The notes under the pieces were generated by a model. It saw nothing but the letters and a program-made list of their open reading frames with translations, did not search any database and had not been told where the DNA came from. Position numbers and translations under genes: made by a program. From IMG/VR virus record IMGVR_UViG_3300035492_000037: a stretch of 64,000 nt of DNA. The stretch is one strand, 5' to 3'. Origin of the DNA: a virus. Positions 9,026 through 53,767 of this stretch are shown in pieces (the first letter of the stretch is position 1; every line of letters starts with the position of its first letter).

Positions 9026-9026
9026 C

Positions 9027-11092: not shown

Positions 11093-11104
11093 CCGAGGAC
11101 AACC

Positions 11105-11728: not shown

Positions 11729-11743
11729 TCGTCGGAGCATCCC

Positions 11744-12600: not shown

Positions 12601-12604
12601 CTCC

Positions 12605-13099: not shown

Positions 13100-13102
13100 A
13101 TC

Positions 13103-14362: not shown

Positions 14363-14886
14363 AGACAGTTTCTAAAGTAGACCGCACGCAGAAAGGGTGG
14401 ATCAACAACTGTGAGGTCACCGATAGCGGGTGCTGGGTGTGGAGATTCGCCAAAAATCGAGACGGATACGGGACTCTCTACAAGTCAATAGAGAAGAAAG
14501 CTTACCGTGCGCACAGATATGCCTATGAGCTGTTTGTCGGCCCGATACCGCGCGGACTAGAGATAAGACATCAATGCTTCAACCGAGCGTGCGTAAATCC
14601 AGCTCACTTACTGCCGGGGACGCACCGAGAGAATGTGATGGACACCATCAATGCCGGGCTGCATTCGTATAGCCACGCCAAAGCCCCCAAGCCCGAAGAG
14701 CATCGAAGGAAGATCGCCGAGGGAGTCAGGGCGTCGACGAGCATTCTTAGCGAGGACGATGTGCGCGACATACGCGAGCGGTATGCGGCAGGCGAATCCA
14801 GCAAAAAGCTCCGCGAGATGTATGGGGTGAGCCGTTCAACCATCTACTCCATTACATCAAGAAGAGGCTGGAAATATGTTGCGTGA
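14359..14886 (+). CDS. HNH homing-endonuclease-like protein
   Basis: GCWVW..GYG…AHRYAYE…EIRHQCFNRACVNPAHL..GTHREN; C-terminal HTH. Confidence 0.85.
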   Translation: MKTVSKVDRTQKGWINNCEVTDSGCWVWRFAKNRDGYGTLYKSIEKKAYRAHRYAYELFVGPIPRGLEIRHQCFNRACVNPAHLLPGTHRENVMDTINAGLHSYSHAKAPKPEEHRRKIAEGVRASTSILSEDDVRDIRERYAAGESSKKLREMYGVSRSTIYSITSRRGWKYVA

Positions 14887-15142
14887 TTACTACCTGCAAA
14901 CGGCAGACGAACCCACCATGCGCGCCGCCCTGATCGCTGCTGGCGTGACGGATGACGAGGGCAACTCAACTCCCAGCCATGCGGTATCGGTCATCGGGAC
15001 ATGGTACGAGCAGCCAGACCCGGAAATCGAGCCTGTGGCGCTGCCCGGCTGGCACTTCAACGTCCGCTCCGCCGAGCCTGTCGAGTGGCCGGATAGCGTG
15101 ACGCTGGCTCAGCCGAAAACGCCGTGGAGGGTGTGGGGATGA
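14876..15142 (+). CDS. Small hypothetical virion-associated protein
   Basis: 88 aa; LPGWHFNVR and PKTPWRVW motifs typical after spike genes. Confidence 0.55.
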   Translation: MLRDYYLQTADEPTMRAALIAAGVTDDEGNSTPSHAVSVIGTWYEQPDPEIEPVALPGWHFNVRSAEPVEWPDSVTLAQPKTPWRVWG

Positions 15143-15456
15143 TCCGCGCGCTGATCCTCGCAGCCCTGCTTCTGGCAGGCTGCGACCAGGCTCCGGCACA
15201 GATCGAGCGCACCGAAGCCCTGGTGCATATCCGCCTGGTGGATCAGATCGACTACCGACCGGGCTACGACGCGCTCGGTCTGTCCCGCTGCGCCAACGGT
15301 GTGTGCGTGGTCGAGATTCGCCGCGACCTGTACCCGGCCTGCGTCACCCACGAGATACGGCATGTGTTCGAGGGTGACTGGCACGCAGGGCGAGAAACAA
15401 CTGAGGGGTGTGAATTATGGGTAGCATCGGAACCGGACCAAACCAGATTCCCGTAG
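15139..15456 (+). CDS. Putative lipoprotein with an HExxH motif
   Basis: Signal peptide with LAGC lipobox; CVTHEIRH. Confidence 0.55.
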   Translation: MIRALILAALLLAGCDQAPAQIERTEALVHIRLVDQIDYRPGYDALGLSRCANGVCVVEIRRDLYPACVTHEIRHVFEGDWHAGRETTEGCELWVASEPDQTRFP

Positions 15457-16568
15457 CAGGCATGCTCGGGACGATGGCGTTTCAGGACGCTGAGTCGGTC
15501 AATATCGAGGCGGGCCTGATCGGCACCAAGACTGTCGCCGAGCTGAATACCGCCGCATCGGACGCCCGCGAATGGACGGCTGAAACCGTCACGCAGACCG
15601 AGGCGGAGCAGGGCACGGGCACCACCCGCCGCGCATGGACGGCAGAGCGCGTGCGCCAGGCCATCGCTGCTTGGTGGGCTGCCAGCGCGATGAAGACGAA
15701 GCTGGACGGCATCGCTACCGGCGCCACGGCGAATGACACGGATGCCCAGCTGCGCGACCGGTCAACTCATACCGGCACCCAGGCGATCAGCACGGTGACT
15801 GGGCTGCAAACGGTGCTCGACGGGAAGATCAACGCTAGCGAGCGCGGTGTTTCGGGCGGCATCCCGACGCTGGACGAGTTCGCGCGGATTCCGCCCAGCC
15901 AGCTGCCGAGCTACGTCGAGGATCTGGCGCGCCTGGCGCCCGCCCCTTCGATTTCTGGTCAGTTCGTCTGGACGGCATCCGGGTGGGAAGCTGTTTCAGC
16001 CTCGAACCTCACCGGCTTGGCAGAAGCGATGTCCAACAAGTTGTCGACATCTGGGGGGAGCGTGTCAGGCAAGCTGACCGTCGACTTCAATGTTGGGGCC
16101 TCACCCACTTACGCCGATGGGCAAATCGAGCTTCGGAGTACAGATGGTGGCGACGTTTCTCTGGGCTTCCACCGCAGTGGCTACACGGCATGTCAGCTTC
16201 GCCACTCGAACAATGGGTTGATTCTTTCTGGAACAAGCAGGACTGCGGCAGCCGATCTGTACGTTTACGGAACCATTACGGCAGCATCTGACGTTAGGCT
16301 CAAGCGCGACATTCGAGTTATCGATGACGCCACTTCCCGGATAAGATCGCTGCGCGGAGTCACGTTTACTGCCATTTCGTCAGGCGAAAGGCTCACTGGA
16401 GTTATAGCTCAGGAAGTTCTAAGTGTTTTGCCGGAGGCGGTGAAGCTCGGCGAAGACGGTTTTTATTCTGTTGCGTATGGGAGCCTTGTTGGCCTGCTGA
16501 TTGAAGCTCTCAAAGAGCAGGCGGCGCGAATCGACAAGCTGGAGTCCGCCCATGACGCTCCCCAGTAG
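15417..16568 (+). CDS. Tail fibre with C-terminal peptidase S74 (intramolecular chaperone) domain
   Basis: ASDVRLKRDI…GVIAQEV..LPEAV…VAYGSLVGLLIEALKE. Confidence 0.8.
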   Translation: MGSIGTGPNQIPVAGMLGTMAFQDAESVNIEAGLIGTKTVAELNTAASDAREWTAETVTQTEAEQGTGTTRRAWTAERVRQAIAAWWAASAMKTKLDGIATGATANDTDAQLRDRSTHTGTQAISTVTGLQTVLDGKINASERGVSGGIPTLDEFARIPPSQLPSYVEDLARLAPAPSISGQFVWTASGWEAVSASNLTGLAEAMSNKLSTSGGSVSGKLTVDFNVGASPTYADGQIELRSTDGGDVSLGFHRSGYTACQLRHSNNGLILSGTSRTAAADLYVYGTITAASDVRLKRDIRVIDDATSRIRSLRGVTFTAISSGERLTGVIAQEVLSVLPEAVKLGEDGFYSVAYGSLVGLLIEALKEQAARIDKLESAHDAPQ

Positions 16569-17091
16569 CGGAACCATGACCACTGCGCAGCTGGCGCAAG
16601 AGTTGTACGGCAACAGCGGTGCCCCTGTAACGATACCGGATGCCGCCACCAGAGCGCTGACGGGTAAATCGACTGGCACGCTGGTGTTTCCTACTGATTT
16701 CTATGGCAAATCAGCCCGCTACGCCATCACCGCCACATTCGCGACATACCAGACCCTGACGACGGGCTACAGTCGTGGCGTGTACGGCTCGATCAGCCCG
16801 GCCTATGCCAACGTCGACGGCGTAACCAATGCCTCCGGCGCGGCGGGGCAGATCGACCTGCTGGCCACGACTCAGGACGAAGCGACGCTCGCCTATTCGC
16901 TCGAACTGGTCATTGTCGGCAGCTACACCCTAGCCAGCCTGCCATTCACGACCATGCGCGTAGCGGACGCCAACAACGTGACCTACAACAAGAGCGCCGC
17001 CACGCTGACCGTATCGGGCGGCAAGACCACGCTGCGCTGGGCGAATGCTGCGCGGTTCTTCACGGGGTCGGCGGCTGTCGTGTTCGGGTAG
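16552..17091 (+). CDS. Hypothetical fibre-associated protein
   Basis: MTLPSSGTMT N-terminus and FPTDFYGKS motif typical of genes after S74 fibres; GGAG RBS. Confidence 0.55.
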   Translation: MTLPSSGTMTTAQLAQELYGNSGAPVTIPDAATRALTGKSTGTLVFPTDFYGKSARYAITATFATYQTLTTGYSRGVYGSISPAYANVDGVTNASGAAGQIDLLATTQDEATLAYSLELVIVGSYTLASLPFTTMRVADANNVTYNKSAATLTVSGGKTTLRWANAARFFTGSAAVVFG

Positions 17092-17108
17092 CAGAGTTTC
17101 AGCCACAT

Positions 17109-17130
17109 CCCCGCCAGTCGGGGTTTTTTT
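17109..17130 (+). terminator. Intrinsic terminator
   Basis: CCCCG-CCAGT-CGGGG followed by a T run. Confidence 0.6.
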
Positions 17131-17146
17131 GCCTGGAAGAAAAATC

Positions 17147-17659
17147 ATGACCCTCTCTGAAATACGGGAGCGAGCCATAGCGCCCGCTCTCGCGCTGCTG
17201 CCTGCGCGGATGTCGAGCCGAGAGGCTGAGATTATGTTGCTAGCTATCGGGCTGCAGGAAAGCAGCTTCGTCCACCGTCGCCAGATGGGAAACGGCCCGG
17301 CCCGGTCGTTCTGGCAGGGTGAGCTCGGTGGCGGGATGGTGGCTGGCGTTCGCACGCATGAGGCCACAAAGGCCCATGCCGCAGCGCTGTACCGCGCCCG
17401 CGGCGTTGCTCCTGACAACCGATCGATCTGGAGCGCTATTGAGCATGACGACGTGCTCGCCGCTGGCCTGGCTCGCCTGCTGCTGTGGAGCGATCCCGGC
17501 CGGCTTCCGAGCTCGGATGACGTGGAAGGCGGTTGGCGGCTGTACCTGAAGACGTGGCGCCCTGGCGCATACGAACGCGGAACTGCTGAGCAACGCGCAG
17601 AGCTCCGCGCCAAGTGGGGCCGGAACTTCGCCGCGGCCGTGCGCGAGGTGATGCGATGA
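17147..17659 (+). CDS. Endolysin (lysozyme-like, Pseudomonas-prophage type)
   Basis: LLAIGLQES..HRRQ.GNGPARSFWQ.E…YLKTWRPG; directly upstream of the spanin genes. Confidence 0.75.
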   Translation: MTLSEIRERAIAPALALLPARMSSREAEIMLLAIGLQESSFVHRRQMGNGPARSFWQGELGGGMVAGVRTHEATKAHAAALYRARGVAPDNRSIWSAIEHDDVLAAGLARLLLWSDPGRLPSSDDVEGGWRLYLKTWRPGAYERGTAEQRAELRAKWGRNFAAAVREVMR

Positions 17660-18171
17660 CCGCCTGGCTGAAACTCGTGCCCGGCTGGGCCTATTGGCTG
17701 CTGGCCCTGGCCGTTGTAGCCGGCGGGCAGCAGATCCGGGTGCTATCGGCGCAGTCTGACGCCGCGCAGGCAAGAACCGATCTTGCCGACTACAGGACCG
17801 AGGTTAGCGAGCGCGACCGCCGCGCTGCGCTGTTCGTCATTCAGGAAAACCAGCGGCGCCAGGCCGCGACGGAGAAAGCAGATGCAGAGGCACAGGAACA
17901 ACTGGCTGCCGCACGTAGCGATGCTGAGCGTGCTGGTAGTGCTCTTGAGCGCCTGCAGCAGCGCCTCGCCGCAGCTGAGCAACGCAGTCGTGACGCCGGC
18001 AATGCCATCACTGCCCAGCTCAGCCAGGCAGCCGAAAGCGCCGCCCGAGTGCGAGCCGACCTGCTCGGCAGGGTTGGAGAGGCTGCTGAACTCTATGCTG
18101 GAGTCGCCGACGAGCGAGGAATAGCTGGGTCTGCGTGTGAGAAAGCGTATGACGCTGTGAAGGGGGATTAG
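17656..18171 (+). CDS. i-spanin (Rz-like)
   Basis: N-terminal TM, long coiled coil, C-terminal GSACEKAY; follows the endolysin. Confidence 0.8.
   Translation: MTAWLKLVPGWAYWLLALAVVAGGQQIRVLSAQSDAAQARTDLADYRTEVSERDRRAALFVIQENQRRQAATEKADAEAQEQLAAARSDAERAGSALERLQQRLAAAEQRSRDAGNAITAQLSQAAESAARVRADLLGRVGEAAELYAGVADERGIAGSACEKAYDAVKGD
17882..18124 (+). CDS. o-spanin (Rz1-like) lipoprotein embedded out of frame in the i-spanin
   Basis: GGAG RBS; hydrophobic core plus LSAC lipobox; Pro-rich mature part with two Cys. Confidence 0.7.
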   Translation: MQRHRNNWLPHVAMLSVLVVLLSACSSASPQLSNAVVTPAMPSLPSSARQPKAPPECEPTCSAGLERLLNSMLESPTSEE

Positions 18172-18533
18172 AGTTGCCCGGACGGGCGAGGACGGTAGAC
18201 CGGAACGCCGGCCTCCTGTGCTGCGGTGATCATGTCTTGCGTTCCGCGGCCGCCCAGGAAGGCGACCACGCCGTCTGGCTTCAGTTCGAGCATCTGCCTG
18301 TTCCGGATCGGCCCGGCGCGCTTGCCGTACTTCTCCCATTCGGCCCGGCACCTGGTGAGGGTCTTGCCCATATTAACTGCCCACTCCCGCGCCCACCGAT
18401 CGGCCCCGGTAGGGCACTCGCCCTGGATGATTTCGGAGATACCGCGGAGCGTGTGGATCTTGTCGAGCACCTGAAACACGAACGCCCGGTCGGTATAGTC
18501 GCGACCGCCGCAGACGATGATTCGGACGGGCAT
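18168..18533 (-). CDS. YspA-like SLOG-family protein
   Basis: RIIVCGGRDY…IIQGECPTGAD..A..WA…AEW.KYGKRAGPIRN.QM…VVAFLGGRGT.DM; GGAGG RBS. Confidence 0.8.
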   Translation of the reverse strand: MPVRIIVCGGRDYTDRAFVFQVLDKIHTLRGISEIIQGECPTGADRWAREWAVNMGKTLTRCRAEWEKYGKRAGPIRNRQMLELKPDGVVAFLGGRGTQDMITAAQEAGVPVYRPRPSGQL

Positions 18534-18568
18534 TTTGACCTTTCCTCCAGCGCCTTGCTTGAATTCTG

Positions 18569-18730
18569 CTACAGCAAAACGAAACGGCAGGATAAGCAAT
18601 TGATCTTATTGGCTTTTATTCGCCAATCAACACGATCCATCATCGGCGCGACGGAAAACCTCCTACTTACCGTGGCGCCTGCGTTTGCTGGCTTTGTGGC
18701 CTGAATTGCGGGGTTTGTCGCTTCACTCAT
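18569..18730 (-). pseudogene. dusA: Orphan 5' fragment of tRNA-dihydrouridine synthase A, running into unrelated DNA after the att core
   Basis: My translation: MSEATNPAIQATKPANAGATVSRRFSVAPMMD, then RVDWRIK… and a stop. FSVAPMMD is the DusA N-terminal motif, normally followed by WTDRHCR. Confidence 0.8.
18636..18646. other. Putative att core (junction of prophage 1 and prophage 2)
   Basis: TCCATCATCGG encodes PMMD on the minus strand, where DusA similarity stops. Confidence 0.6.
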
Positions 18731-18811
18731 TTGCTACCGTTTCCAGCCATTTTTGCTTGTTTCTGAAAGGCCGTTGCTACAATGTAGCAAGCCGTTCAAG
18801 TCATGTAGCAA
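18731..18811. repeat. TTGCTAC/GTAGCAA repeats, putative integrase arm-type sites
   Basis: TTGCTAC at 18731, palindrome TTGCTAC-AAT-GTAGCAA at 18774-18790, TGTAGCAA at 18804-18811. Confidence 0.6.
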
Positions 18812-18816
18812 AATCC

Positions 18817-19929
18817 ATGGGAACCATCACCACCCGCAAGCGCAAGGACGGGGCAACCCGGTATACCGCGCAGATCCGTATCATGCAGAAGGGCGTGACA
18901 GTCTACACCGAGAGCCAGACCTTTGACCGCAAAGCGACGGCGCAGGCGTGGATCAAGAAGCGCGAGACTGAGCTGGCCGAGCCTGGCGCGATTGCTAAAG
19001 CAAAGCGTAGCGGCGTCACGGTCAAGGAGATGATCACGCAGTATCTCGAGGAGTACGAGAAGATTCGGCCGCTGGGCAAGACCAAGCGCGCTACGCTGGC
19101 GGCTATCGGTGAGACGTGGTTGGGGCAGGTCGTAGACTCCGAACTGACAAGCCAGGTGCTCGTCGAGTATGGGAATCGACGCATGCAGGAGGATGGCGTC
19201 CAGGCGCAGACGGTCGGCAACGATCTAGCGCACCTGGGGGCCGTGCTCGCTGTAGCAAGGCCGGCATGGGGTTATGACATCGACCCGATGGCGATGCCTG
19301 ATGCCCGGCGTGTGTTGCGCAAGATGGGCGCGGTCAGCAAGAGCAAGGAGCGGGCCCGTCGCCCGACCCTAGACGAGCTGGACAAGATCCTGACCTACTT
19401 CTGCGAGATGCGCGACCGTCGCAAGCAGCAGATCGACATGGTTCGGGTCACGGCGTTTGCGCTGTTCTCGACTCGCCGACAAGAGGAAATCACGCGCATC
19501 CGCTGGGACGCCATGCGCGAGGATGAACAGTCGGTGCTAATCACTGACATGAAGAACCCCGGCCAGAAGCACGGCAACGATGTGTGGTGCCATGTGCCGG
19601 ACGAGGCATGGCGCATCCTAAAATCGATGCCCAGGGTCTCGGAGTTTGTGTTCCCGTACAACGCCCGGTCGGTGTCGGCGTCGTTCACGCGGGCCTGTCG
19701 CTTCCTGGAGATAGAAGACCTGCATTTCCACGACCTGCGGCACGATGGCGTCAGTCGTCTGTTTGAGCTTGGTTGGGATATTCCGAAAGCGGCCAGCGTG
19801 TCGGGCCACCGGGATTGGAACTCGATGCGGCGCTATACGCACCTGCGTGGGAAGGGCGATCCCTATGAAGGCTGGGCCTGGTTGGATCGGGTAATAACGG
19901 GCCCCGTGATTGGGGCCCGGCAGGATTAG
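18817..19929 (+). CDS. int: Tyrosine integrase (DusA-associated type)
   Basis: MGTITTRKRKDG start; R(RRQEEI), HDLRH, SGH…RRY catalytic motifs; divergent from the dusA fragment. Confidence 0.93.
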   Translation: MGTITTRKRKDGATRYTAQIRIMQKGVTVYTESQTFDRKATAQAWIKKRETELAEPGAIAKAKRSGVTVKEMITQYLEEYEKIRPLGKTKRATLAAIGETWLGQVVDSELTSQVLVEYGNRRMQEDGVQAQTVGNDLAHLGAVLAVARPAWGYDIDPMAMPDARRVLRKMGAVSKSKERARRPTLDELDKILTYFCEMRDRRKQQIDMVRVTAFALFSTRRQEEITRIRWDAMREDEQSVLITDMKNPGQKHGNDVWCHVPDEAWRILKSMPRVSEFVFPYNARSVSASFTRACRFLEIEDLHFHDLRHDGVSRLFELGWDIPKAASVSGHRDWNSMRRYTHLRGKGDPYEGWAWLDRVITGPVIGARQD

Positions 19930-21564: not shown

Positions 21565-22932
21565 CTATTCGGAAAATAGTGTGGATTCGAAGAACTCATC
21601 AAGGTTGTCGTAGAACTCCTTGGCGTGTGTAATCGAGCGCTCGTTGCATTCCTTGCAGAGGCAGTGCCGGCGAGTGTCCCCCGACTCCACTGGCAGCCAG
21701 ACTGCGCGCTCATCCTCGAAGAACAGGCCGCCGCAGCTGACGCAGAACCACTCCGGCGACTGACCTGCACGAGCATTGTTGGAGAACAGCATGCGCGCTC
21801 TGATGATCTCGAACGTGTAGCCGCGCCCGTTACGGTTGATGACCTTCGTCATACCGTTCAGGGCTTCGGTGTAGCCGTTGGTGATGGGGTGATCGAAGTA
21901 GTTGACGATCTGCTGCCGCCAGTTCTTCAGGGCTGACAACAGGTCTTTGTAGTCAGCAACTACGTCACTCGCCTTCACCCGTTGAACCCATCTATCCATG
22001 GCAGGGATAGCGTCCGCCTTGGGCAGGTTGTACAGGGCATAGAAGTCTTCCTTCAGCTGGTAGGACTGGGCGACCTCGGGGTCATTGTCCAGCCACATAT
22101 CGAGGTTGAAGGACTGCTTGTCAGTGAGGTTCGCGGCGCTCTTGTTGAGCAGCACCTTGCTGCGCTTCCACTCCTTGTTGACTTTGACGCCCTGGGCTTT
22201 GCCTCGGCGAATACGGGTCTTGTCCAGCGCATAATTGGCCATCCTGACAACGTGGAACTTGTCGATCACGACCGGCACGCCTGGGGCCATCATGTTCACC
22301 ACGTTGAGGTATGGGCGCCACATATCGGTAGCCACCCCAAGCAGCGTTGAGCGGTCAGGGAAGGCTGCCAGCCAGCGCGCCAGGGTGTCCTGATCGCGGC
22401 TGGGGAGGATATCGATAGGCACGTTGCGGCCCACGTCTGTCAGGACGCAGCGCATGTCACCCGCAATCTTGGTTTCGTCGATCCCCAGCCAGTTAGGCAG
22501 GTATGGCCTGAACTGGGTGTTCATGTGCTCGACGTAATCGTTAGCGATGTTGCGAATGGTCTTCTCGTCGCAGCCGATGTGTTGCGACAGCCTGGTGAAG
22601 GTGTCCCGCATGCACTGCGTCTTGATGTACTCAACGCAGCGCTGGGTCATCCGCCTGTCAACCTCAACCCCGCCCAGTGGCTGCAAGGACGTTCCGCCGC
22701 ACTCCCGGCATTTGTACCGCTGAACCTTGGCTACCAGCTGCACATGAGCGCCCCTGATAGGGCTATCGCGATAGGTCGCTACCTTAGGGCCGTGACGGTA
22801 CAACTTGCCCACTACGCCGCACTTTGTGCAGGCCTGAAGCGGCTGGGTGTATTCAGCCTCGATGGTGTAGGTGCCGTCATCGAGGCGGGAGGTCAGGACG
22901 TTCCAATCTGGTAGGTCGAGGATATCAGTCAT
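21565..22932 (-). CDS. ISL3-family DDE transposase with an extra C-terminal Zn-finger-like tail
   Basis: CTKC…CREC Zn finger, LGIDE, VATDMWRPY, VVIDKFHVV, TNGYTEALN..K..R.GRGY. Confidence 0.92.
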   Translation of the reverse strand: MTDILDLPDWNVLTSRLDDGTYTIEAEYTQPLQACTKCGVVGKLYRHGPKVATYRDSPIRGAHVQLVAKVQRYKCRECGGTSLQPLGGVEVDRRMTQRCVEYIKTQCMRDTFTRLSQHIGCDEKTIRNIANDYVEHMNTQFRPYLPNWLGIDETKIAGDMRCVLTDVGRNVPIDILPSRDQDTLARWLAAFPDRSTLLGVATDMWRPYLNVVNMMAPGVPVVIDKFHVVRMANYALDKTRIRRGKAQGVKVNKEWKRSKVLLNKSAANLTDKQSFNLDMWLDNDPEVAQSYQLKEDFYALYNLPKADAIPAMDRWVQRVKASDVVADYKDLLSALKNWRQQIVNYFDHPITNGYTEALNGMTKVINRNGRGYTFEIIRARMLFSNNARAGQSPEWFCVSCGGLFFEDERAVWLPVESGDTRRHCLCKECNERSITHAKEFYDNLDEFFESTLFSE

Positions 22933-26070: not shown

Positions 26071-26394
26071 TTATGCCCCAGCGAGGTGATGCAGGGGGAG
26101 GAAGGGAATTTCCGAGTCAAAATCATCCGGCGGCGCGGCCTGCTGACTCCGCTGCGCCTGTCGCGGCGCTTGCTGCTGCCCTTGCTGCTGCTCGTCGCGC
26201 GGCTCGAACAGGGCCAGCCACACGCCGCCATCGTCAGAGCGAGGGCAGCCGGCCGGATTGAATGAAGCGTCCAGCTTCAGTCGAAACCCTTTCGAGGTCT
26301 GGATCACCGCTCCAACATTCCGGGTGACGTACTTGGTCTGGCCGTCCTTCTCGTACTGGCCAATGGTTGCTACTACGTCGTATCGCTTACTCAT
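26071..26394 (-). CDS. Small ssDNA-binding-like protein
   Basis: Beta-rich N-terminus, Gln-rich linker, DDFDSEIPF acidic tail; next to recT/exonuclease. Confidence 0.55.
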   Translation of the reverse strand: MSKRYDVVATIGQYEKDGQTKYVTRNVGAVIQTSKGFRLKLDASFNPAGCPRSDDGGVWLALFEPRDEQQQGQQQAPRQAQRSQQAAPPDDFDSEIPFLPLHHLAGA

Positions 26395-27020
26395 GCCGCC
26401 TTACTCCTCATGCGCTCTCGCATTTCGTGTTCAAGTTCTGCCAGCTCTTCGAGGAAGAGCTTGATCTCGGTTTCCATCTGCCGAATGCGTGCCTCGTCGC
26501 GCTCCAGGCGGAAGCAGGCGTACTGCAGTTCATCCGGCAGCCGGTCGTCGAAGGTCACGAAGTCGACCCACTCCAGTTCGGCGCAAGCCATCTGCGCGAA
26601 CATCTGCCATTCGTACTGCGGGTCATGCTTGCCGGATTGGATAGTGGCGACGTGGGTGGCCGTATTCGGGCATTTGATCTCGAGGCCGCCGCGGGCGGAC
26701 AGGATCAGGCCGTCAGGCGAAGCACCGAAGCCTTCGATCGACGGGTGCAGGATCAGGCCAGCCTCGGTCACCTCTGCGTCCGCGTAGAGTTCGTATGCCA
26801 TCCTGGCAATCGGCTCCATTTCGTTGCCACGCTGCATCGCTGCGCTGGTGAACCCTTCTTCGCGCTTGCCGGTCAGCCGCTCGCACAGGAGCTGCATCAT
26901 GTAATTCTGGCGGGTAGCAGAAGGGGCGCCTCCGCGCCCCTTTGCCATTACGTCCCGAACCCGGCTGGCCGTAACGCGGCCGATTCGAGCGGAGAACCAT
27001 TCGTCAGTTTGCTGCTGCAT
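26391..27020 (-). CDS. YqaJ/lambda-exonuclease family recombination nuclease
   Basis: EWF.AR.GRVTAS…GNEMEPIAR..YE…GASPDG…LEIKCP…WQM. Confidence 0.9.
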   Translation of the reverse strand: MQQQTDEWFSARIGRVTASRVRDVMAKGRGGAPSATRQNYMMQLLCERLTGKREEGFTSAAMQRGNEMEPIARMAYELYADAEVTEAGLILHPSIEGFGASPDGLILSARGGLEIKCPNTATHVATIQSGKHDPQYEWQMFAQMACAELEWVDFVTFDDRLPDELQYACFRLERDEARIRQMETEIKLFLEELAELEHEMRERMRSKAA

Positions 27021-27933
27021 GGTCAGCCTCCTGCACCTCTCCCTCGATCGGTGCTGGTTGTGCGCTCAGTGCGGCCTTGCGGGCCTCGACGGCGGTCTTT
27101 AAGGATGAGAACGACGACACGTCTTTAGCGGCCTGCATCTCTGCCTTGCCTGCCAGCCAGACGCTTTGCAGTGCTTCCAGTGATTCAGCGTTCACGACCT
27201 GGGCAATCCACTTCTCGGCAAGCTCTCCGCCGCGTGGCTGCTCATTCATCGACGCCAGGCCTTCCCCTGAATCGGTGTTCAGGTGATGGATCGCCTTGTC
27301 GAGACGGTCAGTCTTTGGCCAGTACTTGTAGGCGCGCTTGACGACTGTTTTCTTCGCCATTTCGCCGTAGTCCGTCTTCCAGGGCGAGGAGCGGCCGGAC
27401 TTCACCGACTGCGACCGATTCATGATTGAATCAATCTCGTCGCGGCTCATGCAGGTTGTGAGGTAGTCGCCGTCGGCCGTCTTGACTACGACGTACACGC
27501 CAACGATCTGGCCTCGATCCTTCGAGAAGGGGTTGTACTGGTGCGCCGGGGGCTTGTCGAAGCCGTTCAGGGCGAAGGAATCGTTCTGGTAGACCAATTC
27601 AGCCTGCGCCCAGCGAATAGAGCCGGTGGCCATGGCCAAGTCCATCAGGCCCATGTAGCTGATGTCGAGGCAGATCTTGCCGTCGCGCGGCACCAGATAG
27701 GCCTGCCGCTTGGCGGGGTTGAGGCTGATCCCGATGGCCGCGATGTTGGTGACCGCGTTCACGACCGACTGGCGGTTGTTCATCGCGATCTTGGTGGCAA
27801 AGTCATTGCCCTGGATGGTCTGTATTGCGAACTCGGCTTCCCGCTCGAAGCTGAGCGTCTTGTCGGTCAGCACCTGGGCGAATGAATCGCGCGCGCCGTA
27901 GATGTCCTGCGCGATGGTTAGGGCGTTGCTCAT
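27004..27933 (-). CDS. recT: RecT-family single-strand annealing protein
   Basis: GISLNPAKRQAYLVP…ISYMGL…PWKTDYGEMAKKTVVKR. Confidence 0.85.
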   Translation of the reverse strand: MSNALTIAQDIYGARDSFAQVLTDKTLSFEREAEFAIQTIQGNDFATKIAMNNRQSVVNAVTNIAAIGISLNPAKRQAYLVPRDGKICLDISYMGLMDLAMATGSIRWAQAELVYQNDSFALNGFDKPPAHQYNPFSKDRGQIVGVYVVVKTADGDYLTTCMSRDEIDSIMNRSQSVKSGRSSPWKTDYGEMAKKTVVKRAYKYWPKTDRLDKAIHHLNTDSGEGLASMNEQPRGGELAEKWIAQVVNAESLEALQSVWLAGKAEMQAAKDVSSFSSLKTAVEARKAALSAQPAPIEGEVQEADHAAAN

Positions 27934-30350: not shown

Positions 30351-30638
30351 TTAGGCTTCGCGCTCTGCCTGGTCGAGAGCAGAGGCGCGCTTGTTGATCC
30401 GCTCGATGCGCTTGGCGATGTCGGCGCGCTGCTCGTCGATCTTCTTGCGGCCGGCTGCGATGGCTTCCTCCTTTGTCGGATAAAGATGCAGTTCCGTGCT
30501 GAACGCCTTGCCCTTGTCGCTTACGTCCCAGTGTTGGAATTGGCCCCATGTTGAGTACGCTCGGGTCAACTCAACCTCAACCGGTTTGAACGCTGGTGTC
30601 AGCGCCCATGCTTTGTACGGGTAGGTTCTTTCAGACAT
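30351..30638 (-). CDS. Hypothetical phage protein flanked by 16-bp direct repeats
   Basis: GGAG RBS; TGTGCCCGGACGGGCG at 30334-30349 and 30683-30698. Confidence 0.6.
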   Translation of the reverse strand: MSERTYPYKAWALTPAFKPVEVELTRAYSTWGQFQHWDVSDKGKAFSTELHLYPTKEEAIAAGRKKIDEQRADIAKRIERINKRASALDQAEREA

Positions 30639-30792
30639 AAGCTCTCCAAGCCGCGTCCTGCGCAGCGTTTAGATTGAGTGGGTGTGCCCGGACGGGCGGG
30701 GAAGGGTGATGCAGTGGCCGGTGCTGATCTCCGGCTTTGTCGGCAGTTGCCGAAATCCGACTGGTCCTTAGCGCATCAGCCTGCGCAACACT

Positions 30793-30928
30793 GCATCGGG
30801 GAGTGATCTGGCCGGGATTCGAACCCGTAAGACTTACGTCGATTTCGGCAGCGCTACCTAGTCGACCGCCCAGCACCCACTGGCGCCCCTGTCCCAAACG
30901 AGGCAAACACCAGATCACTCTCCGATGC
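30793..30928 (-). ncRNA. tRNA-like structured RNA enclosed by a 19-bp stem
   Basis: Arms 30793-30811 and 30910-30928 (18/19 complementary); on the minus strand a CGGG-TTCGAAT-CCCG T-arm and a 7-bp acceptor-like GATCTGG/CCAGATC followed by U8. Confidence 0.5.
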
Positions 30929-31089
30929 CGACTGGTAACGCCAGTCACTCGGCCTGCTACCGATTCCCCGGCAGGCGCGCGGCAGGAGTTGTCTTCCTTG
31001 ACGCCGGATCGGCTCCAGCGATGGTCGTGGCGCTCCCAGCACCGCGCGCCGTACGGTTATCGCAGACCTGGGGGTCTGGCCTGGCTGGT

Positions 31090-31173
31090 TCAGGGTTTAT
31101 GGCGCCACCACTCCAGCCCCCACAGCGCAGCTAGTACGCAGATGAGGAGGAGGGTTTCTGGTTCGGTTAGCAT
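31090..31173 (-). CDS. Small membrane peptide (27 aa)
   Basis: MLTEPETLLLICVLAALWGLEWWRHKP; overlaps the upstream stop. Confidence 0.35.
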   Translation of the reverse strand: MLTEPETLLLICVLAALWGLEWWRHKP

Positions 31174-31487
31174 GGGGTGCCGCGAGCCTTGGCGATGGCG
31201 GCGCGCATCGTTCTCAGTGCCGCCTGGGCATCCCTGACATAAGCAGGATCGAAGCCTCCGGCCAGATGGATCACCGCTTGGCACGCGTGCAACTCTTTGC
31301 AGGCCAGTTCTAGGGCGTGCAGCAGATCAGGCGCAGCGACAATCAGGTCCGCATCTGCCTCGGTGTAGACGTAGTCAGCAACCTGCTCGCCGTCGTCGTT
31401 GAAGTAGATTGGAAAGCCGTGGGCGTTGCCGCCGTAGCTGACGCGCTCGCCCTTGCGCCAAACGCCTTGCGTGATTCCATTGCTCAT
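31167..31487 (-). CDS. Hypothetical phage protein
   Basis: GGAGG RBS; TQGVW…ADADLIVAAPDLLHALE…AAIAKARG, a widespread phage early-gene motif. Confidence 0.75.
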   Translation of the reverse strand: MSNGITQGVWRKGERVSYGGNAHGFPIYFNDDGEQVADYVYTEADADLIVAAPDLLHALELACKELHACQAVIHLAGGFDPAYVRDAQAALRTMRAAIAKARGTPC

Positions 31488-32559: not shown

Positions 32560-33213
32560 TCAGAACATGGATTTCGGCAGCTTAGCGTCAATGACGCGAC
32601 CTATAAGAACGATCCGGTCATCCATCCGAATTGTCTCAAAGCTTGGGTTCAGCGGCTCGAGGTATTCGACCCCGGCGTCTCGGACGTACCGCTTAAAGGT
32701 CGTCTCACCGCTGTCCAGCATCTTCGCAATGTAGAACTTTCCACTTATGACGTCGAAGCCTTCAGGCTGAACCAAAATGCGCATCTTAGGCATAAAGCTC
32801 GGACCTTCTCGCGGCGACACCATCGAAAGGCCTTTTACTTCAAGCCAATAACCATATCGGCCAGCGTTCTCGTTCGACTCAATGAACTCCTCAGCCTGTC
32901 CTGGCTGGAAGTTGTCGCACGACTCCGCAAGCGCTCCCGCTGCTACCCAACTTATCAAGGGATACCGCCTCTCTTCCCGGTGTGGCTGTTCGGTTGCGCC
33001 TACGTTAGCGCCTCCGCTTCCAAATAATAGCCACTCCGGGGTTACGCCTAGCGGGCGCGCCAGCTTACTGACGGTGGTTTTCCGTGGGCTATCGCTTTCG
33101 CCGGATAGTATCCGATTGATAGTCGGCTGCGGGACTCCCGATCGGCGGGAAAGTTCACCTTCTGACCATCCCTTGACCCTCATCAACTCGCCCAGGCGGG
33201 CCGCAATAGTCAT
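32560..33213 (-). CDS. cI: CI-like repressor (XRE HTH plus S24 peptidase)
   Basis: SEGELSRRSGVPQPTINRIL HTH; YPLISWVAAG, WLEVKGLSM, TTFKRY self-cleavage domain. Confidence 0.93.
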   Translation of the reverse strand: MTIAARLGELMRVKGWSEGELSRRSGVPQPTINRILSGESDSPRKTTVSKLARPLGVTPEWLLFGSGGANVGATEQPHREERRYPLISWVAAGALAESCDNFQPGQAEEFIESNENAGRYGYWLEVKGLSMVSPREGPSFMPKMRILVQPEGFDVISGKFYIAKMLDSGETTFKRYVRDAGVEYLEPLNPSFETIRMDDRIVLIGRVIDAKLPKSMF

Positions 33214-33223
33214 GTCTGCCTCG

Positions 33224-33278
33224 ATACCTTTTTGTATATCGAGAGTGTATTGCCTGCGCCCATGCGAAAGCGTATCAT
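33224..33278 (+). promoter_or_regulatory. pR promoter and OR operators
   Basis: -35 TTGCCT (33250-33255), 17 bp, -10 TATCAT (33273-33278); ATAC-N6-GTAT at 33224-33237 and ATGC-N6-GTAT at 33262-33275. Confidence 0.7.
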
Positions 33279-33310
33279 CGGTCATACATAACCTGATTGG
33301 TGCTATGAGA

Positions 33311-33508
33311 ATGACCATCCAAGAAATGCTGCGCGACCTGGAGGCCTTCGGTTTCTCGCAGCGCGAAATCGCAGAGAAGTGCGGGACCAGCCAGCCGAAC
33401 ATCAGCCGAGCAATCAACGGCACCGCTGTTCGCTACGAACTCGGGAAGTGCATCGAGGAGATGCACAAGAAGGCTCGCCGCTCCGCTATGCGGAAGGCTG
33501 CAGCTTAA
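33311..33508 (+). CDS. cro: Cro-like repressor
   Basis: GFSQREIAEKCGTSQPNISRA HTH; divergent from cI. Confidence 0.85.
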   Translation: MTIQEMLRDLEAFGFSQREIAEKCGTSQPNISRAINGTAVRYELGKCIEEMHKKARRSAMRKAAA

Positions 33509-43796: not shown

Positions 43797-44423
43797 ATGG
43801 CCCTGACTCAGAAGCAGGAAGCCTTCGCGCTTGCCTACTTTGAGACGGGCAATGCCAGCGAGGCATACAGGCGTTCGTACAACGCCGAGAACATGAGCCC
43901 TAACGTGATTCACAACAAGGCCAGCGCATTGATGGCTAAGGGTGATGTCAGGGTTAGGATTGAACAGCTCCGCGCCAAGGCTGAAACGGCCTCAGTAATG
44001 AGTCGGCAGGAGGCCCTGGAGCGACTTTCGACCTTCGCCCGCACCGATATATCCGACCTGGTCGAGTTCGGCGCGTATGAGCTTGGCCAGGACGATGACG
44101 GCAAGCCGATTGTCCAGGCTGCCTGGAAGATCCGCGATTCTGTCCTGCAAGACCCGAAGAAGCTGGCGGCGATATCTGAACTGTCCGCTGGCCGTGACGG
44201 GATCAAGATCAAGACCCATTCGCCGCTTCAGGCGATCCAGCAACTTGCCAAGCTGCAGGGCTGGGACGTTCACGAGCTTGACATTGAAGGCAAGCGCCTG
44301 GCTAACGAGAAGGCGCGCCGCGAGCTTGAAGGCGAGCAGACAGTGCCCGTGGCCAAGATAGAGATCGAGGTGGTAGGTGGAAGGACGGACGCTAAGGCTT
44401 CAGATGACGGAGCCGCAGGCTAG
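43797..44423 (+). CDS. terS: Terminase small subunit
   Basis: LTQKQEAFALAY..TGNASEAYRRSY. Confidence 0.9.
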   Translation: MALTQKQEAFALAYFETGNASEAYRRSYNAENMSPNVIHNKASALMAKGDVRVRIEQLRAKAETASVMSRQEALERLSTFARTDISDLVEFGAYELGQDDDGKPIVQAAWKIRDSVLQDPKKLAAISELSAGRDGIKIKTHSPLQAIQQLAKLQGWDVHELDIEGKRLANEKARRELEGEQTVPVAKIEIEVVGGRTDAKASDDGAAG

Positions 44424-45654
44424 GTTCTTCCAGCTGCGCGACAAGTACCCGGCATTCGTGGGCGGGTTTGGTACCGGCAAGACTGAGACGCTAGCCAATT
44501 GCGCGATCCGTGACGGCCTTGAGTCGTCCTCTGCCCTGATTGCCCTCTATGAGCCGACCTATGATCTGGTCCGCCTGATCCTGGCGCCGCGGATGGAGGA
44601 GAAGCTTTCTTCGCTGGGCATCCGGTACAAGTACAACAAGCAAGAGAACATCATCTACACCAGCTCAGGCCAGTGTGGTGACTTCGTGCTTCGTACCCTG
44701 GAGAACCCGGCGCGGATCATCGGCTACGAGTCGTACCGAGCGCACGTCGACGAGATCGACACGCTCAAGAAGGATCAGGCAAAGCTCGCCTGGCAGAAGA
44801 TCATCGCGCGGAATCGGCAGCGGCCTGATGGCATTGCTGACCCGTTCAACCGCGTTTCGGCTTACACCACGCCGGAAGGCTACCGGTTCGTTTACGACAC
44901 CTGGGGCCGCAATCCTAAGCCTGGCTACGTGATGGTCCAGGCTGCCACGTACAGCAACCCATTCCTGCCGGATGACTACGTGCAGACCCTGCGCGACAGC
45001 TATCCGGCCGCCCTGATCGATGCCTATATCGAAGGGCGATTCACGAACCTGACATCGGGCAGCGTCTACCCCGACTTTGACCGCGCGCTGAATCACTCAG
45101 ACGCCACGCTGCAAGAAGGTGAGCCGGCCCTTATCGGGATGGACTTCAACCGTTTGCACATGAGTGCCGTGATCTACGTCATGCGCGATGGCTGGCCGGT
45201 GGCCGTGGACGAGATCACTGACGGGCGTGATACGCCGCAGATGGTCGAGCTGTTCCTCGAGCGCTACAAGCGCCGCGGGCACGCCGTGACGATCTTCCCT
45301 GACGCCAGCGGACAGAACAGCAGCAGCAAGAATGCCAGCGAGTCGGACCTGAGCATCATTCGGCAGGCAGGCCTTGCTGTGCGGGTGAACAGTACGAACC
45401 CAGCCATCATGGACCGCGTGAACGCCGTCAATGCCTTGATCCTGAATGGGCAGGGTGAGCGCCGCCTGAAGGTCAACACGCACCGCTGCCCGCATTTGAC
45501 GGATGGCCTAGAGCAGCAGGCGTTCGACAAGAACGGAATGCCCGACAAGTCCAGCGGTATCGATCACGTCATCGACGCGGCCGGCTATCCGCTGGCTCAC
45601 ATGTTCCCCGTATCTAAACCTGTCACCTCACTCAAACTCGGATTTGCACGATGA
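44377..45654 (+). CDS. terL: Terminase large subunit (PBSX-like)
   Basis: GGFGTGKT Walker A, HVDE Walker B, GMDFN and DHVIDAAGY nuclease motifs. Confidence 0.93.
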   Translation: MEGRTLRLQMTEPQARFFQLRDKYPAFVGGFGTGKTETLANCAIRDGLESSSALIALYEPTYDLVRLILAPRMEEKLSSLGIRYKYNKQENIIYTSSGQCGDFVLRTLENPARIIGYESYRAHVDEIDTLKKDQAKLAWQKIIARNRQRPDGIADPFNRVSAYTTPEGYRFVYDTWGRNPKPGYVMVQAATYSNPFLPDDYVQTLRDSYPAALIDAYIEGRFTNLTSGSVYPDFDRALNHSDATLQEGEPALIGMDFNRLHMSAVIYVMRDGWPVAVDEITDGRDTPQMVELFLERYKRRGHAVTIFPDASGQNSSSKNASESDLSIIRQAGLAVRVNSTNPAIMDRVNAVNALILNGQGERRLKVNTHRCPHLTDGLEQQAFDKNGMPDKSSGIDHVIDAAGYPLAHMFPVSKPVTSLKLGFAR

Positions 45655-47096
45655 CCGATGTCACCTATCAGCGCCAGGACTACAAGGACGCCCTGTACCG
45701 TTGGCGCTTGGTGCGCGACGTGTGCAAAGGCTCCGAGGCGGTCAAGAACGAGCGCACGCGGTACCTGCCGCAGCCTAACGCGCAGGACGAAAGCGACGAG
45801 AACAAAGCCCGTTACGATGCCTATCTGGCGCGGGCCGTGTTCTACAACGCCACTGGCCGCACGAAAGGCAGCCTCGTCGGTGCCGTGTTTCGCACCTGGC
45901 CCGTTGTCACGCTGCCGAAGCTGCTGGAGTACGTCACCAAGGACGTAGACGGGCAGGGCGTGAGCATCTACCAACAGTCGCAGTCGGTTATCGGGCATCT
46001 GCTCGAAACCGGCCGGCATGGTCTGCTCGTGGACTACCCATCAGTTGAGCCGGGCACCGTCAGCCAGGCGGACATGGCATCCGGCGCGATTCGGCCGACT
46101 GTCTCCAGCTACCCGGCTGAGGCCATCATCAACTGGAAGACTCGCAAGGTTGGTGGCCGGCATGTGCTGTCGCTGATCGTTCTGCGAGAGACGGTTGACG
46201 AGGACACAGAAGACGGCTTCGGCGTCGAGTCCAAAGACCAGTACCGCGTTCTGCGGCTGAATGAGTCCGGCCAGTACCAGCAAGAGCTATGGCGTCAGGC
46301 TGGCGGCGGCTGGATGGTCGAAGACCCGCGCATTCCGCTGGATGGCTCCGGCAAGCCCTGGACTGTAATCCCGTTCCAGTTCGTCGGCAGCGAGAACAAC
46401 GACACGTCGATTGATGAGTCGCCGCTGTACGACATGGCTGAGATCAACATCGGTCACTATCACAACAGCGCGGACTATGAGGAAGCGGCCTACCTGGTCG
46501 GCCAGCCTCAGCCGTGGATGTCTGGCCTTGACGAGCAGTGGCGCGACCACTTCGAAGAGACGGGCATCTACCTCGGCTCTCGTGCCCCCTGGCTGCTTCC
46601 GGTCAATGGTGCGTGCGGCGTCTGGCAGGCCCAGCCCAACACGGTCGCCAAAGAGGCCATGGACGCCAAAGAGCGCCAGATGGTGGCTCTTGGTGCCCGC
46701 CTGATCGAGAAAGGTAGCGCGGTCAAGACCGCCACTCAGTCCGAGGCAGAGACGGCGGCAGAGCATAGCGCCCTGTCGCTGATCGTCAGCAACGTGTCGG
46801 AAGCCTACACGCAGTGTCTGATGTGGATGGCTCAGTTCCTGAACGTCAGCGGCGAGATCGAATACACGCTGAATCAGGACTTCACCCAATCCAACCTTGA
46901 CCCGCAGATGCTGCAGCAGATCCTGCAAGCGGTCATGGCCGGCAAGATGCCTGAGTCTGACTTCTGGCGTTACCTGCGCGACTTCCAGCTGATCGATCCC
47001 GAGAAGACCGACGAGGAAATTCGGGAAGAGATCGCGGGCAGTGGCACCGGCCTGAACCTGGAGGATGACAATGGCGACGGCGGAGCGACTGATTGA
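45651..47096 (+). CDS. Portal protein (DUF4055-like)
   Basis: 481 aa after terL; YLPQP…YLARAVFYN; PLYDMAEINIGHY..SAD. Confidence 0.88.
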   Translation: MTDVTYQRQDYKDALYRWRLVRDVCKGSEAVKNERTRYLPQPNAQDESDENKARYDAYLARAVFYNATGRTKGSLVGAVFRTWPVVTLPKLLEYVTKDVDGQGVSIYQQSQSVIGHLLETGRHGLLVDYPSVEPGTVSQADMASGAIRPTVSSYPAEAIINWKTRKVGGRHVLSLIVLRETVDEDTEDGFGVESKDQYRVLRLNESGQYQQELWRQAGGGWMVEDPRIPLDGSGKPWTVIPFQFVGSENNDTSIDESPLYDMAEINIGHYHNSADYEEAAYLVGQPQPWMSGLDEQWRDHFEETGIYLGSRAPWLLPVNGACGVWQAQPNTVAKEAMDAKERQMVALGARLIEKGSAVKTATQSEAETAAEHSALSLIVSNVSEAYTQCLMWMAQFLNVSGEIEYTLNQDFTQSNLDPQMLQQILQAVMAGKMPESDFWRYLRDFQLIDPEKTDEEIREEIAGSGTGLNLEDDNGDGGATD

Positions 47097-48138
47097 GGCG
47101 GCGACTCGCAACGGCGTGATGCTCGAGCGCCTGAAGGCTGGAGAGGTCCAGAAGATCGATCCATTCCTTCGGCGCATCGACAAGGACATCCGGGAGCGAC
47201 TGAGCCGTGATGCGCTGACCGCGTACAGTCGGCAGCGGCTGGAAACGATGCTCGCCACGATCGACGCGATGATTGCGAAGGTCCACGGCGAGTTTTCCGA
47301 GCAGCTACTGCTAGACCTGTTCGATATTGGCAGCTACGAGGCCGAGTTTGAAGCAAGGTCGCTCGATCAGGTGCTGGTCAACATCTCGGTAGCGACCCCT
47401 ACCGTTCAAGCGATACAGGCCGCTGTGAAGGCTCAGCCGCTGAGCGTGACCGGGCCGGATGGCGGCAAGCTGCTGGAGCCGTTCATTGCCGACTGGCTGC
47501 AGGCTGAGCGCAACCGGGTCACTGGCGCGATTCGTATGGGCTATGTCCAGGGTGAGACGAATCAGGCCATCATCAACCGTATTCGTGGCACCAAGGCGCT
47601 GCAGTACAGCGACGGCTTGCTGGCGATCAGCAAGCGCAATGCCGAAGCCGTGGTCAGGACTGGCATCCAGCACGTCGCAAGCGTGGCGCGCATGGAGACG
47701 TGGAAGGCCAACAGTGACGTGGTAACCGGCTATCGCTGGGTTTCGACCCTTGACGGCCGCACCTCCAATACCTGCAAAAGCCTCGATGGCCGATCGTTCA
47801 AGATGGGCAAAGGACCACTGCCGCCGATCCACATCCGCTGCCGCAGCACGACGGCCGCAGAGCTGGACGCTCGCTACTCGTTCCTCGACGACGACGCGAC
47901 ACGCGCGTCCAAGGACGGCTACGTCGATGCCGGCGAGTCGTATTACTCGTGGCTGCAGAAACAGCCGGCCTCCTTCCAAGACATTGCGCTTGGAAAGGAG
48001 CGGGCAACCCTGTTCCGCAAGGGTGGGCTGAGCGCTGAGCGCTTCGCCGAACTCCAGCTAGACCGCAACTTCAAGCCTCTGACCCTCGACCAGCTCCGCG
48101 CACTGGAGCCGGCAGCGTTTGAGCGCGCAGGAATCTGA
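47065..48138 (+). CDS. Minor head protein (SPP1 gp7/Mu F family)
   Basis: WVSTLDGRTS..C..LDG…PPIHIRCRS. Confidence 0.88.
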   Translation: MTMATAERLIEAATRNGVMLERLKAGEVQKIDPFLRRIDKDIRERLSRDALTAYSRQRLETMLATIDAMIAKVHGEFSEQLLLDLFDIGSYEAEFEARSLDQVLVNISVATPTVQAIQAAVKAQPLSVTGPDGGKLLEPFIADWLQAERNRVTGAIRMGYVQGETNQAIINRIRGTKALQYSDGLLAISKRNAEAVVRTGIQHVASVARMETWKANSDVVTGYRWVSTLDGRTSNTCKSLDGRSFKMGKGPLPPIHIRCRSTTAAELDARYSFLDDDATRASKDGYVDAGESYYSWLQKQPASFQDIALGKERATLFRKGGLSAERFAELQLDRNFKPLTLDQLRALEPAAFERAGI

Positions 48139-48187
48139 TTCACCTCCGCAGGCTGGGCCTGCAACCACTGTCTCCGGGAGACAAGCG

Positions 48188-48901: not shown

Positions 48902-48917
48902 CCAAGGAATCACAGAT

Positions 48918-49928: not shown

Positions 49929-49980
49929 CCTGGTTCCGGCCTCCTCGTGAGGCCGGCCCTTCAAGCATCAGGAGATTCCC

Positions 49981-50193: not shown

Positions 50194-50196
50194 AGC

Positions 50197-50694: not shown

Positions 50695-50695
50695 C

Positions 50696-51468: not shown

Positions 51469-51526
51469 CGTGTAAGCGCTAGCGGAAAGTGGCATAATGA
51501 GCCTTCTCAGATAAAGAGGCTCGCCC

Positions 51527-52345: not shown

Positions 52346-52371
52346 AGCGGGCTTTTTATTGGGGCTACGAA

Positions 52372-53757: not shown

Positions 53758-53767
53758 GGGGGCTCGC

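Follow-up and report, generated by a model that had tools for sequence, protein, structure and literature searches.

Ribonuclease (RNase) III hairpins are known from the early intergenic regions of T7 (R0.3 to R1.3), from the N leader and sib site of lambda, and from the stems that bracket 16S and 23S ribosomal RNA (rRNA). DicF, encoded in the dicBF operon of the Qin prophage, is a base-pairing small RNA (sRNA) that is freed by RNase III and RNase E. The immunity RNAs CI of P4 and C4 of P1/P7 are processed by RNase P, and the species 1 and 2 RNAs of T4 are stable, non-decoding phage RNAs that resemble transfer RNA (tRNA). We analyzed a 64,000-nucleotide (nt) stretch of viral DNA, IMG/VR record IMGVR_UViG_3300035492_000037 (hereafter the window), which carries on its minus strand, at 30793-30928, a long helix (the clamp) around a tRNA-shaped interior (the cargo). 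This element is a genuine conserved, strand-specific, non-coding structured RNA. Rfam has no entry for it, and we found no published description or known function of it in the literature we searched; papers on MD8 and Pseudomonas lambdoid phages make no mention of it.

The whole RNA and its parts, in 5' to 3' order, are as follows.

30793-30928, minus strand: whole clamp-plus-cargo RNA, 136 nt, with a cargo of class 0, the tRNA-shaped class
30910-30928, minus strand: clamp 5' strand, made up of P1 (GCAUCGG, 30928-30922), A30921 facing C, and P2 (GAGUGAUCUGG, 30920-30910)
30884-30905, minus strand: P3, a D-arm-like hairpin (UGCCUC, the 10-nt loop GUUUGGGACA, GGGGCG)
30870-30883, minus strand: P4, a short hairpin of variable sequence (CCAG UGGGUG CUGG)
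30838-30866, minus strand: P5, a bipartite hairpin at the "anticodon-arm" position (GUCGA, internal loop CUA/GAAA, GGUA, GCGC tetraloop, UGCC, UCGAC)
30829-30837, minus strand: single-stranded conserved linker (CGUAAKUCUUU plus flanking bases) with no conserved helix
30812-30828, minus strand: T-arm, a stem of 4-5 base pairs (bp) with the invariant loop UUCGAAU
30793-30811, minus strand: clamp 3' strand, made up of P2' (CCAGAUCACUC, 30811-30801) and P1' (CCGAUGC, 30799-30793)

The clamp pairs 30928-30910 with 30811-30793 over 19 positions with one A.C mismatch, and was recovered by an inverted-repeat search as repeat I2 (19 nt, 95% complementary). It encloses a 98-nt interior that forms a five-way junction, with an invariant tRNA-type T-arm and without a 7-nt anticodon loop. 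The T-arm adjoins the clamp 3' strand with zero spacer, a tRNA-like placement. The single-sequence minimum free energy is -66.4 kcal/mol (z = -4.6).

An earlier, sequence-only reading of this locus had described a tRNA-like RNA embedded in a long stem, and every feature that it listed is present. The acceptor-like stem GATCTGG/CCAGATC, followed by U, forms the top 7 bp of P2 and thereby of the outer helix, which does extend to 19 positions, one of them the A.C mismatch. The 5-bp stem GTCGA/TCGAC pairs 30866-30862 with 30842-30838 in P5, the T-arm with its TTCGAAT loop lies at 30828-30812, and no CCA is encoded in the element. Some details needed correction. The body within the 7-bp "acceptor," given as 113 nt, measures 112 nt. 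The 19-nt loop closed by GTCGA/TCGAC is not unstructured but contains a folded, covarying GGUA-GCGC-UGCC helix. A segment GTAAG/CTTAC, likened to a variable arm, is present at 30837-30827 but is not a conserved helix, most homologs having GUAAUUCUUUU there. Two further hairpins, the D-arm-like one at 30905-30884 and the variable one at 30883-30870, had been missed.

A BLAST search of phage records matched the exact 136-nt module at 84% identity in the Pseudomonas phages Orimi01 and Orisa01-03, where it is unannotated. Scanning IMG/VR and one genome per species with sequence patterns put class 0 at 45 loci. In the one-genome-per-species scan, the true matches to class 0 were in Pseudomonas only, and we rejected the matches outside that genus as chance flanks of ordinary tRNA genes. 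Homologs are 135-138 nt long and differ by indels of 1-3 nt. Because these indels break any reading frame and the overlapping open reading frames (ORFs; 30631-30948, minus strand, and 30737-31237, plus strand) have no PHROG or Pfam match, we excluded a protein-coding reading.

Covariation across homologs, one of the checks that the sequence-only reading had proposed, supports the fold. We used an alignment (A2) of 30 distinct sequences in 141 columns, on which RNAalifold predicted the clamp, P3, P4, the GCGC-capped P5, and the T-arm, with double-sided changes in 24 of 40 pairs. When a 5-bp T-stem was added, 96.2% of cells could pair and both sides changed in 25 of 42 pairs across the 30 homologs. 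Shuffled alignments gave 5.5 ± 1.8 such pairs, with 0 of 500 reaching 25, and slid controls gave 3-6. Both sides change in 12 of the 19 clamp pairs (helix 1; 98.1% of cells paired), in two pairs of P3 (helix 2; 98.9% paired), and in 7 of the 9 pairs of P5 (helices 4 and 5; 99-100% paired), and the inner P5 helix GGUA-GCGC-UGCC (helix 5) covaries. At the P4 position the hairpin is kept in homologs with other sequences, among them CCCUGC-GU-GCGGGG, AUGCC-AGCG-GGCAU, and CACCA-AGC-UGGUG. The T-loop, the GCGC loop, and the 11-nt linker are invariant in class 0, and the alignment columns of the P3 loop contain one invariant G within a near-invariant GG. A pseudoknot between the P3 loop and the linker was rejected on inspection of the alignment, which had no consistent covariation there, as was a kink-turn in the P5 internal loop, whose sequence misfits the motif.

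A covariance model (R1) scored the same loci at 136-165 bits on the sense strand and at 34-42 bits on the antisense strand, and the class 0 fold includes conserved G.U pairs. This strand asymmetry, together with the G.U pairs, indicates a signal at the level of RNA rather than duplex DNA. Folds computed in full context keep the 19-bp clamp, both in the window and at one type-B locus.

The cargo is not a decoding tRNA, as the sequence-only reading had already held. ARAGORN found no tRNA or transfer-messenger RNA (tmRNA) in the whole window, in related loci, or in the 65 clamps described below. Nothing in Rfam reached its gathering threshold over the element. At E ≤ 10 only RtT (18.5 bits; threshold 45) and YrlA (14.5 bits; threshold 69) were returned, both of which we rejected because they match through the T-arm only, and neither the tRNA model (RF00005) nor a tmRNA model matched even at that cutoff. 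The Proteo-phage-1 motif (RF03044) had no match at E ≤ 10 in window positions 30400-31300, nor at E ≤ 0.5 in eight related loci. The alignments to YrlA and RtT, both below threshold, make use of an 11-nt complementarity between a trailer hairpin, Hb (30745-30758), and the 3' half of P5 (30847-30858); this is probably local chance and is not kept in locus L038.

Because it lacks an anticodon arm, the cargo is unable to decode. The parts of a tRNA that it reproduces are the acceptor/T-arm stack and the D-loop/T-loop elbow; the decoding half is missing. The T-arm is stacked on the acceptor-like helix and the D-arm-like hairpin has GG in its loop, in keeping with the earlier suggestion of a tRNA mimic, here a partial one. 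Its companion suggestion, a decoy for anticodon nucleases, is not supported by the structure: the arm in question is a bipartite 9-bp hairpin with a GCGC tetraloop and offers no mimic of an anticodon loop. A consensus T-arm lies against or next to the clamp 3' strand in four independent interior classes (class 0, L039, L069, and L071), and a hairpin with GG in its loop occurs in three of these four T-loop-bearing classes.

Like the T4 species 1 and 2 RNAs, the element originates in a phage transcript, has tRNA-type arms, does not decode, and has no known function. Unlike them, it is held in a 19-bp clamp and not in a tRNA cluster, forms a five-way junction, and is confined, within the searches made, to Pseudomonas lambdoid phages. 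The bacterial Y RNA YrlA (RF02553) combines a long stem formed by its 5' and 3' ends with a tRNA-like module that includes a T-arm (Chen et al. 2014, PMC4201824). Our element shares the end-formed long stem and the T-arm module and has a weak, sub-threshold Rfam match to YrlA, but the score is 14.5 bits against a gathering threshold of 69, and its arm order is not permuted as in YrlA. The Ro60/TROVE family (PF05731) was absent from five of five host genomes that bear the element, whereas positive controls were matched. With a score this far under threshold and no Ro60/TROVE in the five hosts, we rejected the Y RNA reading.

The helix is a shared scaffold that bears unrelated interiors in other phages. 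The clamp is a conserved stem of about 19 bp, with the base GCAUCGG/CCGAUGC and with conserved leader and trailer sequences, in a fixed intercistronic slot of the early-left operon of Pseudomonas lambdoid phages. Phage PS-1 has the same outer stem around a shorter, different interior. A scan of 151 Pseudomonas species genomes with R1 yielded three strong matches and six weak ones, the latter sharing stem, leader, and trailer around unrelated interiors, and further interiors were found in the clamps of P. aeruginosa phage MD8 and phage SC_8_H2H8. In the sequences gathered, which include many IMG/VR and genome loci, 65 distinct clamps sort into about 20 or more interior classes, including plain hairpins of 46-82 nt (class L074 comes from an unpublished genome, G104, and none of our claims relies on it). 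In 62 of the 65 the clamp measures 18-22 bp whatever the size of its cargo, and whole elements vary between 46 and 155 nt. Two clamps occur in three phages; every one of these clamps immediately follows a gene and has a leader of its own. Class 0 is kept in its 45 loci despite differing flanking genes.

Because the clamp houses about 20 mutually unrelated RNAs across related phages, its slot resembles an exchangeable accessory locus. It behaves like an RNA counterpart of early-operon morons and anti-defense genes rather than a core regulator. The early operons of temperate phages are annotated almost wholly as protein genes; here, a fixed slot found in numerous lambdoid phages of Pseudomonas holds conserved, exchangeable structured RNAs. 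The named phages that bear it include Orimi01, Orisa01-03, PS-1, MD8, and SC_8_H2H8, and the element is now either unannotated or overlapped by "hypothetical protein" calls.

Outside this family, three Azoarcus/Aromatoleum genomes (L043:2950-3074, L044:7158-7282, and L053:7619-7743) have an ordinary tRNA between GCATCGGG and CCCCGATGC, the two 8-mers that also form the base of the clamp. Genome-wide, about 5-15 such flanks of ordinary tRNA genes are expected by chance, yet the bracket recurs in three related species.

The window holds a lambdoid Pseudomonas prophage in which the element runs in the same direction as the CI gene, the small ORFs on either side, and the RecT and exonuclease genes. 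Those two small leftward ORFs (31167-31487 and 30351-30638) are separated by 528 nt without genes, in which the element lies. A promoter-like site (32482-32454, minus strand) is found just downstream of the CI gene, about 1.5 kb upstream of the element, and no terminator-like site flanks the element. In Orimi01 the element is 180 nt downstream of a 10/12 sigma70-like promoter. It is reasonable to regard the element as transcribed within the leftward early (pL-type) transcript; the sequence-only reading had placed it there as well, and this agrees with its position in the corresponding operon, past the CI gene and the promoter-like site. Inside an operon transcript, any discrete RNA must therefore arise by processing.

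The reading we prefer, to which we would assign an even chance, is that the clamp is a stem processed in the manner of RNase III substrates, from which a stable, tRNA-shaped small RNA with an accessory role in trans is released. Host RNase III would cut the two-turn clamp, as it does the early intergenic hairpins of T7, the N leader and sib of lambda, rRNA precursor stems, and DicF. Such cutting would divide the polycistronic early RNA and liberate the cargo, a small RNA that would be discrete, compact, and resistant to nucleases. RNase P and 3' exonucleases may then trim the leftover helix extension; trimming by RNase P is conceivable because the T-arm sits exactly as it does on a tRNA minihelix. 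Once free, the tRNA-shaped RNA could act in trans by occupying a tRNA-binding protein of the host or the phage. A processing signal was among the functions that the sequence-only reading had listed. That part of it is plausible, the helix being the conserved 18-22 bp clamp, but cleavage is a step that we infer.

As in the RNase III hairpins listed above, sequences on either side of an RNA segment pair into a helix of about two turns, and this helix lies between genes in a polycistronic early transcript. The clamp also recurs after successive genes and its length is held at 18-22 bp, which is that of a two-turn stem. In contrast to those hairpins, the base of the clamp is near-invariant, leader and trailer are conserved, the cargo is elaborate and exchangeable, and the clamp is a putative cleavage site. 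Like DicF, the cargo would be an sRNA released from a polycistronic prophage early transcript; unlike DicF, with which it shares neither sequence, fold, nor host, it has no evident seed or target. Should the clamp indeed serve in processing and the cargos work in trans, the element would define a new class of phage accessory factors. The element would then also provide a natural scaffold for stable RNA expression in Pseudomonas and a testable case of tRNA mimicry without decoding.

Several points weigh against this proposal. What it says of cleavage, of discrete RNA ends, and of function goes beyond what was observed. P1 (GCAUCGG) is almost invariant although RNase III has little sequence specificity, and P1-related motifs recur in the leader (CCCGAU) and the trailer (CUGCAUCAC); there are hints here of an additional sequence-specific partner or a folding pathway, outside an RNase III model. 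Part of the invariance of P1 and the T-loop is ascertainment, because the patterns used to gather sequences partly fixed both, offset only by the BLAST and covariance-model matches. RNase P would have to cut within a duplex unless RNase III acts first, and there is no encoded CCA. We identified no trans target or binding protein.

A second reading, which we regard as possible but hold only tentatively, is that the clamp serves as a general "expression cassette." RNase III would excise any cargo, cargos would be traded by recombination in the arms, and the tRNA-shaped cargo would be a protein-directed decoy. Such a decoy would titrate or misdirect a host factor that recognizes tRNA, for example an immune nuclease that senses tRNA or an enzyme of processing or modification. 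If true, this would be an RNA-based counterpart of anti-defense gene islands.

It is also conceivable, though we think it rather unlikely, that the element acts purely in cis between cistrons, as an RNase III site, a barrier that stabilizes messenger RNA (mRNA), or a Rho shield, with the interior a functionless decoration of the tip. The constant clamp length would suit such a role, as would the clamps that are plain hairpins of 46-82 nt without elaborate cargo, and clamps immediately follow stop codons and can be repeated behind consecutive genes. However, the class 0 interior is under strong structural selection: P3 and both helices of P5 (P5a and P5b) covary, and the T-loop, the GCGC loop, and the 11-nt linker are invariant. 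Class 0 is also retained in 45 loci with differing flanking genes, and a neutral tip would not keep a tRNA elbow in four independent cargo classes.

The sequences 5' of the clamp bear on another alternative. In the window they include two features.

31054-31091, minus strand: leader motif (GAACCAGCC.., the hairpin AGACC CCC AGGUCU, then GAUAAC), with a single occurrence in the window
30930-30954, minus strand: pre-clamp segment, consisting of CCGA (which complements UCGG of P1) and the hairpin GACUGG CGUUA CCAGUC

The leader is built, in order, of AACAACCAGCGCCA, a covarying hairpin, (U/A)AACUG, CCCGAU, and, immediately before the clamp, another small hairpin that covaries. The leader motif of the window is homologous to the AACAACCAGCGCCA-hairpin-UUAACUG leader of other phages (e.g., L026:9566-9629), with about 95 nt inserted between it and the clamp. 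The small pre-clamp hairpin, at 30946-30930 in the window, is present in all homologs with differing self-complementary sequences, such as CUCUC UAU GAGAG and GGCUC ACGUAAC GAGCC. The leader CCCGAU can pair with the clamp 5' strand. Attenuator- or riboswitch-like switching among the leader CCCGAU, the P1 strands, and the trailer CUGCAUC was rejected, the clamp winning in full-context folds of the window and of a type-B locus; switching via the trailer was likewise rejected, since the MD8 trailer motif adjoins the clamp and pairing between the two is impossible. We also looked in the leader for the Pseudomonas Chi sequence (GCTGGCGC, PMC12315714), which is not present.

This leader, in which a covarying hairpin precedes the conserved single-stranded (U/A)AACUGCCCGAU, could be read as part of a site for processive antitermination, either a put-like RNA acting on RNA polymerase or a nut-like leader hairpin followed by a boxA-like UUAAC. 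The location in the early-left transcript, the 5' leader position in Orimi01, and the failure to recognize an N-like gene would agree with it. We nevertheless consider this reading improbable. A search of the window for a second leader or clamp copy, as an analog of nutR, found none, and the single copy with none in the rightward operon is not the HK022-type put arrangement, in which an RNA of two hairpins lies just past the early promoters of both early operons. In the window the element is about 1.5 kb downstream of the promoter-like site, and elsewhere clamps recur after several genes of one operon. Unrelated interiors are ill-suited to a surface that contacts polymerase, and the resemblance to boxA extends over 5-7 nt, partly inside a helix.

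The sequence-only reading had compared the element with P4 CI and P1 C4. Like these, it is a small structured RNA that would be excised from a phage transcript by a tRNA-processing route. Its acceptor/T minihelix is tRNA-like and it is embedded in an early phage transcript, both of which could suit a trans-acting antisense or immunity RNA freed by RNase P. This is very unlikely, and we did not retain the analogy. The element matches neither the Rfam C4 model nor another family, has no CCA, and lies outside the position of immunity control. Its acceptor helix remains double-stranded beyond the point at which RNase P would be expected to cut. No complement to the conserved linker was found in the 64-kb window, where the search of other segments was not exhaustive, and the sole local complementarity, between 30745-30758 and the 3' half of P5, does not recur in L038.

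That the element is a decayed or captured tRNA gene, its structure a relic without present function, is less probable still. The T-arm does fit the tRNA consensus exactly, and cargo classes L039 and L071 come closer to a cloverleaf. Yet compensatory changes uphold the non-tRNA helices too, no tRNA model matches at E ≤ 10, ARAGORN finds none among the 65 clamps, and the element is conserved across many mosaic phages. A plain match to a decayed ordinary tRNA, which the sequence-only reading had named among the outcomes that would count against it, was found by neither ARAGORN nor Rfam. The least probable reading is that the element acts as DNA, as the terminal inverted repeats of a miniature transposon or as a palindrome for recombination or protein binding: a perfect-looking inverted repeat does surround variable DNA, its arms change together, and GCATC/GATGC motifs are repeated nearby, but the conserved G.U pairs, the strand asymmetry of about 100 bits in the covariance model, the covarying interior hairpins, the lack of a target-site duplication, the single copy per genome at a fixed rather than dispersed position, and an orientation that is always that of transcription all argue otherwise.

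On the 3' side, the trailer bears the conserved CUGCAUCAC, and in the window it includes a further folded region, which lies directly 3' of the element.

30708-30797, minus strand: second structured trailer domain, with a closing stem of GAUGCAGUG (30797-30789) and CACUGCAUC (30716-30708)

This domain has a 9-bp closing stem and three hairpins (30787-30771, 30761-30739, and 30735-30717); in one of the hairpins the loop is a conserved AGGCUGA. Five nucleotides of the closing stem, the last of the clamp 3' strand, are shared with the 3' strand of P1. The closing stem covaries, being AGUG/CACU in some sequences and AGAUG/CAUCU in others. In L073 and L075 the same domain is the cargo of a canonical clamp.

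Just past the clamp trailer, some loci have mini-ORFs (L077:2757-2778, and also L018, L005, L024, L035, L068, and L069) in which a strong Shine-Dalgarno sequence is followed by a start-stop or by two to three codons (ATG-TGA, ATG-TAA, ATG-CAC-CAG-TAA). They recall the bar minigenes of lambda; the window has none.

The neighboring genes are those of a lambdoid prophage. The CI repressor, with a helix-turn-helix (HTH) domain and an S24 peptidase domain, is encoded at 32560-33423 on the minus strand. As listed, its ORF has 287 amino acids and the HTH begins near residue 65-73; the true start is probably internal. DUF1376 and primase-helicase genes run rightward from 34344, and the leftward recombination genes are RecT (27004-27933) and the exonuclease (26391-27020). 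Between the integrase and the recombination genes lies an ISL3-family transposase (21565-22932, minus strand; DDE_Tnp_ISL3, zinc ribbon, and HTH), probably an insertion sequence within the prophage. The window has two sets of virion genes, at 1-19929 and 44377-64000, without nucleotide similarity to each other. The first comprises capsid E (1191-2195), the tape measure (4630-6774), and a tail-fiber chaperone domain (15417-16568), followed by the integrase (18685-19929); the second begins with the terminase at 44377 and the portal at 45651. The two sets suggest tandem prophages, or a prophage beside a remnant.
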